A DNA stretch of 61,609 nucleotides, counting the filler, from Basidioascus undulatus (taxonomy: Eukaryota): NCBI GenBank assembly GCA_000826855.1. It is 3 parts of 3 records of this genome, joined end to end, with 100 filler letters (N's around TTAATTAATTAA, not from the genome) between each part and the next. Parts side by side here need not be neighbours in the genome. Positions count along the whole stretch, not along the records: positions 1 to 20,492 come from JTLS01000371.1; 2 more parts are not named here. One strand, 5' to 3'. The translations under genes were made by a program, and so were the position numbers. Below are positions 11,913 to 12,595 of the stretch, piece after piece. The notes below the pieces were generated by a model. That model did not search any database. It was not told the DNA's origin and saw only the letters and a program-made list of their open reading frames with translations. Numbering within the stretch: the first letter of the stretch is position 1; the number at the start of each line of letters is the position of its first letter.

Positions 11913-12595
11913 TCAGTGGTGCGCCTCGTCGAGAGGAGGACCCTGGTAGTCGAGCTTGTAGACTGCGAAGATGAGATGGAGGAGGTTAGATGAAGCGGAG
12001 ATGCGCGGGGATGAGCAGCGGCAACGCGAGCCTTCCAGCAGGAACGCAGCAGGAACCGGACGGCTTACCGACACCAGACTCGGGGCAGCGGCCAATGCCG
12101 TTGTTCTTGCGGATGTCAAGGGTGAGCCAGATGGTGTCGTTCGAGTCGACGGGGACTGCGCATCCGACCCCACAACTCGTCAGCATCCTCCCCTCACCTC
12201 GCGTGCCATCCTCCCAGAGTCCTACTCACAGCCAGTGGAGCCGACAATGCGAGTCGAGTGCTGCCCGAGGCCACAGCGACCCGTCATCAGCATCTTCACA
12301 CGTCTTCCAGACTCTGGTGCGGACGCACCAGGGAGGGGACGAGGATAGGGTCCTTCATGGTGCCCATGCGGTCGACGTTGAGGGGCGACATGTCGAAGAC
12401 GTCGATGCCCTTGGCCTTGCCGATGAGCTCGAAGCGCTCGAGACCGGTCGCCTGGTCCTCGTCGGTAGGGATCGTGCCCTCCTTCGCACCGGGACCGTAG
12501 AGAGCGGGCGGCTTGGGCGCGTGCGCATCGAGAGCGCGCGCAGAGGTGGTGAAGGTGCGCGCGGGGCGAAGGGCAGTGCGGAAGCGGGACAGCAT
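11913..12595 (-). CDS. COX4: Cytochrome c oxidase subunit IV (fungal Cox4 / COX5B family) with a degenerate zinc site
   Basis: Arg-rich mitochondrial presequence MLSRFRTALRPART, GTIPTDEDQATGLERFEL, GTMKDPILVPS. Exons 12595-12329, 12260-12230, 12155-12069 and 11962-11913 give RIVGSTGFPVDSNDTIWL..RCPESGVVYKLDY. Confidence 0.93.

Follow-up and report, generated by a model that had tools for sequence, protein, structure and literature searches.

The zinc of Cox4/COX5B is the one cofactor that complex IV carries outside its catalytic core, and to our knowledge the purpose of this metal has never been clear. Whether the subunit can do without it is a question raised by a gene of the fungus Basidioascus undulatus, for which a reading of the DNA made without database searches (the sequence-only reading) had claimed the loss of three of the four zinc ligands. 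The gene lies in a stretch of 61,609 nt of B. undulatus DNA from assembly GCA_000826855.1, which we analysed as a whole and call the window, and in which positions 1-20,492 come from JTLS01000371.1. It had to be asked whether the ligand codons are really replaced, how far the replacement extends among related fungi, and whether the altered site might still hold a metal.

When the exons were joined by their coordinates with a script, the spliced coding sequence of 435 nt stayed in frame and encoded 144 amino acids, running on the minus strand from an ATG at 12595-12593 to a TGA at 11915-11913 and interrupted by three introns, all of the GT..AG type (Table 1). The short exon 4 was matched in tblastn by the Cox4 of Wallemia ichthyophaga, with 87.5% identity over 16 amino acids. 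Read directly from the DNA, the codons at the ligand positions specify Ser, Asn, Cys and Ser (S/N/C/S) in place of Cys, His, Cys and Cys (C/H/C/C). The codons TCC, AAC and TCT, as well as that of the lone Cys, stand exactly where they had been placed by the sequence-only reading, which was also right that each of the replaced codons is one base away from a ligand codon (TGC, CAC or TGT) and that the changes are split over two exons, exon 2 holding ligand 1 and exon 3 holding ligands 2 and 4. A stop-free frame of 289 codons (11990-12859, plus strand) runs antisense over the entire gene; base composition most likely accounts for it, as the DNA has 56% G+C and a real spliced gene lies on the other strand.

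Table 1. Features of the window (coordinates along the whole stretch). X3 and X4 are public sequencing runs whose contigs were aligned to the locus.
Feature	Position	Strand	Description
COX4/COX5B coding region	11913..12595	-	four exons, 144 codons + stop
Exon 1	12329..12595	-	Arg-rich N-terminal presequence and N-terminal domain, 89 codons; X3 contig covers 12497-12329
Intron 1	12261..12328	-	68 nt, GT..AG; joint 12260/12329 in X3 contig; plus-strand ends CT..AC
Exon 2	12230..12260	-	first zinc knuckle, motif RIVGSTG
Ligand-1 codon	12237..12239	-	TCC = Ser; Cys in other fungi; exon 2
Intron 2	12156..12229	-	74 nt, GT..AG, phase 1 within Phe codon; joint 12155/12230 in X3
Exon 3	12069..12155	-	second half of knuckle 1 and whole knuckle 2; motifs DSNDT, RCPESG
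Ligand-2 codon	12139..12141	-	AAC = Asn; His in other fungi; exon 3
Ligand-3 codon	12085..12087	-	TGC = Cys, sole ligand kept; invariant in 90/90 aligned sequences
Ligand-4 codon	12076..12078	-	TCT = Ser; Cys in other fungi; exon 3
Intron 3	11963..12068	-	106 nt, GT..AG, phase 1; joint 11962/12069 in X3 and in X4 record 3
Exon 4	11913..11962	-	C-terminal strand and tail, motif VYKLDYQG ... HH, stop
3' untranslated region	11838..11912	-	reaches at least 11838; X3 contig colinear to there
Protein kinase	872-1585	+	weak Pfam match
GHMP kinase C-terminal	24221-24967	+	Pfam E 2.5e-11
L-type lectin domain	40607-41116	-	Pfam E 1.5e-17, below cut-off
Cytochrome P450	44221-44691	+	Pfam E 1.4e-12

The assignment of this gene to the Cox4/COX5B family was tested on several levels. 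Exon 1 alone matches the Pfam profile PF01215 (COX5B) with 98 bits (E=4.4e-28), the cut-off being 31, and the frame of exon 3 gives a weak additional match to profile positions 83-113. The Wallemia orthologue matches 24 PDB sequences in HMMER, all of them Cox4 or COX5B, and its E values against these solved chains lie between 8e-31 and 9e-29. Together with the position of the window protein within the fungal Cox4 tree (see below), these matches of the Wallemia orthologue establish orthology with characterised Cox4. In the HMMER alignment, the S/N/C/S of Wallemia stands opposite the C/H/C/C of Cox4 from Saccharomyces cerevisiae (6giq_d, 6hu9_d) and Schizosaccharomyces pombe (8c8q_D). According to PMC7196821 and PMC10655221, zinc is modelled in Cox4 of the complexes of both these yeasts, and PDB entry 2odx bears the title "Solution structure of Zn(II)Cox4". 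An alignment of 90 sequences showed that three of the ligand columns are at least 90% conserved and that the retained Cys is invariant; the near-invariant neighbours T98, P101, S104, W109, R122 and E125 are all kept in the S/N/C/S proteins, which differ at the ligand columns only. With Ser, Asn, Cys and Ser at the places of the four ligands, the window Cox4 is a family member by descent that stands outside the zinc-binding functional class.

We then assessed how widely the pattern is distributed. A HMMER search with exon 1 among 1.84 billion representatives gave 567 matches, of which the best 150 were used, and a profile search of a 5.8-billion protein collection gave 338, of which the best 120 were used; a collection search with exon 1 alone returned 3 matches, none of them close. 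The four ligand columns were read in an alignment of 288 rows, comprising 287 retrieved proteins and the window protein. C/H/C/C was found in 151 of the 288 rows, and S/N/C/S in 10 (the window protein, W. ichthyophaga, Wallemia mellicola and seven Wallemia-like cluster members), while one row read S/F/C/S and 33 were gapped at all four columns; most of the other rows are fragmentary or stem from prokaryote-style gene calls that continue into introns. Thus, among the 162 rows that read C/H/C/C, S/N/C/S or S/F/C/S, the canonical set occurs in 151. Cluster look-ups added Wallemia hederae and more strains of W. ichthyophaga and W. mellicola, all with S/N/C/S. When the C-terminal 59 residues were searched against the 5.8 billion proteins, three clusters were returned (W. 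ichthyophaga, W. mellicola and the Wallemia-like P0006), and again all read S/N/C/S. As the same three replacements recur in every retrieved Wallemia sequence, they are not due to chance. Alignment to homologues from relatives, by which the sequence-only reading was to be judged, shows the substitutions to be widespread in the clade, a possibility which that reading had foreseen; they occur in W. ichthyophaga, W. mellicola, W. hederae and a Wallemia-like fungus.

A metagenome scan with an alignment of the window and Wallemia proteins gave three loci, with no further S/N/C/S relative among them. Two of these (L001, Ga0157379_10005489; L002, Ga0182193_1007087) are Cys-intact basidiomycete COX4 genes according to tblastn, and the third (L003) matches over 25 residues only. 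The first two are soil or plant-associated metagenome contigs, and in their COX4 genes an intron falls at, or close to, the site of window intron 1.

To see whether the domain that lost its ligands is decaying, we compared identities domain by domain between the window protein and its W. ichthyophaga and W. mellicola counterparts, respectively. Identity is 4/27 and 7/27 in the presequence, 45/62 and 45/62 (73%) in the N-terminal domain, and 46/55 (84%) and 45/55 (82%) in the C-terminal domain, which once held the zinc. In five Cys-intact pairs the values for the C- versus the N-terminal domain are 57 vs 63%, 67 vs 76%, 45 vs 64%, 84 vs 86% and 55 vs 71%, so that the C-terminal domain is the less conserved half in 5/5, the reverse of what is seen between the window and Wallemia; this is a small sample of five hand-picked pairs, with domain limits taken from a simple pattern. 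The half that once held the zinc is strongly constrained and is not decaying.

The fold was tested on the W. ichthyophaga orthologue, standing in for the window protein. Its AlphaFold2 model has a mean pLDDT of 83.9, with values of 93-97 over residues 71-130; as the AlphaFold alignment consists mostly of Cys-intact homologues, these values are no evidence on the stability of a metal-free protein. The model shows the Cox4 arrangement of N-terminal helices and a small C-terminal beta domain. Its best PDB matches in Foldseek are the Cox4 subunits of S. pombe, S. cerevisiae and K. pastoris (target-normalised TM 0.66-0.71), and it superimposes on the Zn(II)Cox4 NMR structure 2odx with an rmsd of 1.9 over 54 columns. 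The S/N/C/S sequence is thus compatible with the Cox4 fold.

We think it likely that the window gene is a lineage-fixed Cox4 orthologue, the ligands of which were lost in an ancestor shared with Wallemia, and that its product folds without metal and plays the normal role in complex IV. In this scenario, the common ancestor of the window fungus and Wallemia would have exchanged Cys for Ser, His for Asn and Cys for Ser. These are the closest look-alikes that do not bind metal; they would preserve the shape of the site while abolishing zinc binding, and the surrounding knuckle residues would all have been retained. We infer the absence of zinc from the chemistry of Ser and Asn, which are poor zinc ligands. 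Coyne and colleagues are said to have found in 2007 that mutations of the ligands in yeast Cox4 damage complex IV, and a zinc-free Cox4 would thus need compensating changes. Most likely, no canonical tetrahedral zinc takes part in the folding of the small C-terminal beta domain. Hydrogen bonds between side chains, along with closer packing, could hold the site together, and the strictness with which this domain is conserved would perhaps be the price of the lost metal clamp. The protein would otherwise be an ordinary matrix-side structural subunit, and its function in complex IV is presumably that of other Cox4 proteins. The structural zinc site that is kept from yeast to mammals thus seems dispensable in this lineage.

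The main rival to a metal-free reading is a site that still binds metal, be it zinc, coordinated by the remaining Cys and by water or further residues, or Mg, Ca or Na as hard cations coordinated by the newly acquired oxygens. One argument for such a site is that the ligand-3 Cys is strictly kept, in 90 of 90 sequences, including an independent loss in Malassezia and two lineages with partial losses which are described below; moreover, general coordination chemistry allows the oxygens of Ser and Asn to ligate hard cations. However, no zinc site known to us is built from a Cys, an Asn and two Ser, and the S/N/C/S proteins have gained no new Cys or His near the knuckles. A pair of His residues at the C-terminus occurs in Cys-intact fungi too, and thus it is not a compensation. 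Taken together, we regard continued metal binding as improbable, and a metal-free Cox4 remains the reading that we prefer.

The sequence-only reading had left it undecided whether the protein is fixed in its lineage or is a zinc-sparing paralogue. The latter would mean that the genome also holds a canonical Cys/His/Cys/Cys COX4 and that the copy in the window serves as a back-up under zinc scarcity, and the pattern of ligand loss does resemble that of such paralogues, of which the bacterial C-minus ribosomal proteins are an example. To place the protein, a maximum likelihood tree was built from 35 of the 288 rows, which represent named fungal species and some odd others, with fragments and redundant ascomycetes omitted. 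In this tree, the window Cox4 is the sister of two Wallemia proteins with support of 100/99 (the fungus being placed beside Wallemia by Cox4 alone), rather than a side copy; its end branch is 0.09, and there is no long branch among the 35 rows. Intron positions tell a similar story. Gene calls on W. ichthyophaga-like DNA (P0007, P0178) run off where window intron 2 begins, and the Wallemia-like call P0006 enters an intron at the codon where window intron 3 lies, while all three read through the place of window intron 1. The introns common to the window and the Wallemia-like genes agree with orthology, and speak against a paralogue.

The same is true of the database entries. All returned Wallemia entries, from three named species and several strains, are S/N/C/S, and no Cys-intact Wallemia Cox4 is present among the best 120 of the 338 matches, though ascomycete Cox4s at 45-60% identity appear there; nor was one found in the search with the C-terminal domain, which gave S/N/C/S clusters only. 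A Cys-intact second COX4 had been proposed as a target for tBLASTn, and in the 61.6-kb window, within which the search was run with four probes, no other COX5B-like stretch was found. Considering the shared pattern, the 100/99 grouping, the shared introns, the constraint on the domain and the fact that no Cys-intact copy was seen, the lineage-fixed branch of the earlier proposal is favoured, and its paralogue branch is disfavoured to a degree that we would call very improbable.

To check the gene model and its bases, contigs of four public runs were aligned to window positions 11800-12700. A genomic contig of run X1, which is a possible source of the assembly, is identical across this interval. 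In run X3, a contig of 442 nt joins 12497-12329, 12260-12230, 12155-12069 and 11962-11838 with no other letters; the library type of this run is not stated, and it shares its sample with the possible source run of the assembly, so that the contig proves the splicing but is no independent check of the bases. Its depth value of 1547 is not taken as a measure of expression, and no weight is given to the stretches left uncovered in X3, X4 and X5 (introns and the 5' end). Run X4 is a soil metatranscriptome from a different study. Its record 3, a contig of 171 nt, joins 12146-12069 to 11962-11870 with one other letter. The window COX4 gene is transcribed.

Record 4 of the same run is a more diverged contig, with 9 other letters per exon piece; where exon 2 would be, it has 39 substitute letters. 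A hand translation of this stretch gives the motif RIVGSTG with Ser at ligand 1, which is the one ligand readable in this contig, as the other codons lie too close to the ends of its pieces. A relative living in soil thus has at least the ligand-1 Ser in common with the window Cox4.

At 11838, the spliced X3 contig departs from the genome and continues with 30 letters that match nothing in 11800-12700, and there is no obvious GT donor at this point. It is possible that the contig is chimeric, that it ends in an adaptor, or that the 3' untranslated region is spliced to a site beyond 11800.

As a spliced contig with no mismatches joins these very exons, mis-splicing, editing and noise are not the cause of the replaced ligands; the ligand codons covered by the X3 contig match, and no splice or editing variant restores them. 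The claim that the gene is otherwise intact is thus borne out by an open frame over four exons, by spliced contigs and by a conserved domain. That the pattern is an artefact or a sign of decay (a sequencing error, a mis-assembly, a wrong splice model or a pseudogene) has practically no probability left in view of the frame open through all four exons, the spliced contig with no mismatch in X3 and an independent one with a single mismatch in X4, the same residues in many independently sequenced Wallemia genomes and the high conservation of the ex-zinc domain, and this reading was dropped.

If the ligands could be lost once, it is natural to ask whether this has happened elsewhere. The single S/F/C/S row of the alignment is the Cox4 of Malassezia sp. 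CBS 17886 (P0050, WFD29360.1), while Malassezia furfur, M. brasiliensis and M. vespertilionis have C/H/C/C. The tree includes three Malassezia, namely CBS 17886, M. furfur and M. vespertilionis, which form one group (96/93). Because CBS 17886 groups with Cys-intact Malassezia, its case is a second, independent and apparently recent loss of ligands 1, 2 and 4. Moreover, in two sets of clusters (P0182/P0298/P0299 and P0101/P0168) Ser takes the place of ligand 4, and 2-3 residues downstream there is a new Cys (RCPESGQC and RCWTSGC, respectively). P0182 reads C/H/C/S and is weakly placed beside Saitoella, and P0101 reads C/Leu/C/S and is the sister of a Cys-intact yeast-like sequence (100/100). 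Such sequences may represent either a shifted zinc site or a first step towards its loss. The ligand-3 Cys is kept in every case of loss or partial loss.

On this basis one could propose that loss of the Cox4 zinc site is not a one-off but a repeatable and possibly adaptive route in fungi, completed at least twice, once in the ancestor of the window fungus and Wallemia and once in a Malassezia species. We regard this generalization as improbable. If it were true, the proteins would be natural blueprints for a metal-free Cox4 and could show why complex IV carries zinc at all; the loss might, for example, make assembly independent of the zinc supply of the matrix or, in stress-tolerant fungi, remove a zinc-thiolate site that could be oxidized.

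The rest of the window was also surveyed. Pfam scans of 8 and 84 stop-to-stop frames (92 in total) gave fragmentary, exon-sized matches only (Table 1), and the window is intron-rich. Positions 1-5000 have a G+C content of 0.656 and a GC skew of -0.149, and in the rest of the window G+C is 0.50-0.58. Long overlapping stop-free frames at 1665-3434 (plus strand), 1413-2468 (minus) and 1961-3220 (minus) have no Pfam match.

The Wallemia sequences themselves have long been public under neutral names: entries TIB66777.1, TIA87452.1 and EIM22243.1 are called "hypothetical protein", "COX5B-domain-containing protein" or "Cytochrome c oxidase subunit 4". A full-text literature search, the coverage of which leaves out most subscription journals, found no paper that deals with the Cox4 of Wallemia or with a Cox4/COX5B lacking zinc. 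If this lineage respires with a tightly conserved Cox4 that has lost three ligands, it would constitute a natural experiment indicating that the metal is not intrinsically required. The S/N/C/S sequences are also ready-made material for testing metal replacement in yeast, and they are a warning that such proteins should not be annotated automatically as binding zinc.

How, then, does the window protein compare with known systems? It belongs to the same PF01215 family as Cox4 of S. cerevisiae and S. pombe (6hu9_d, 6giq_d, 8c8q_D; 2odx) and animal COX5B (1occ_F). The fold predicted for the Wallemia orthologue is shared with them, the knuckle motifs differ in nothing but the ligands, and the N-terminal presequence looks similar. 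Yet where zinc is modelled in the yeast subunits (PMC7196821, PMC10655221), the window protein has Ser, Asn and Ser at three ligands.

With Cox4 of W. ichthyophaga, W. hederae and W. mellicola, by contrast, the S/N/C/S residues are identical and the C-terminal domain is 82-84% identical; the proteins are sisters in the tree, share intron positions and are about 72% identical overall. The window gene differs from its Wallemia-like counterparts in lying in DNA of 56% G+C and in having the extra intron 1. With this identity, G+C content and intron, the window gene represents a separate, deeper branch, which dates the loss to the common ancestor. The subunit of Malassezia sp. CBS 17886 resembles that of the window in being without ligands 1, 2 and 4 and in keeping ligand 3, but its loss is independent, and its ligand 2 is Phe where the window has Asn.

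Outside this family, two bacterial systems are instructive. C-minus ribosomal proteins are extra gene copies without Cys that are switched on by zinc shortage, and the lid of adenylate kinase binds zinc in Bacillus while that of Escherichia coli is metal-free. In both, as might be the case for the window Cox4, a small zinc domain survives the loss of Cys by means of side-chain contacts. Unlike the C-minus ribosomal copies, however, the Cys-less Cox4 is the only copy seen and is fixed in its lineage, and in this respect it is closer to the alternative orthologues of adenylate kinase.
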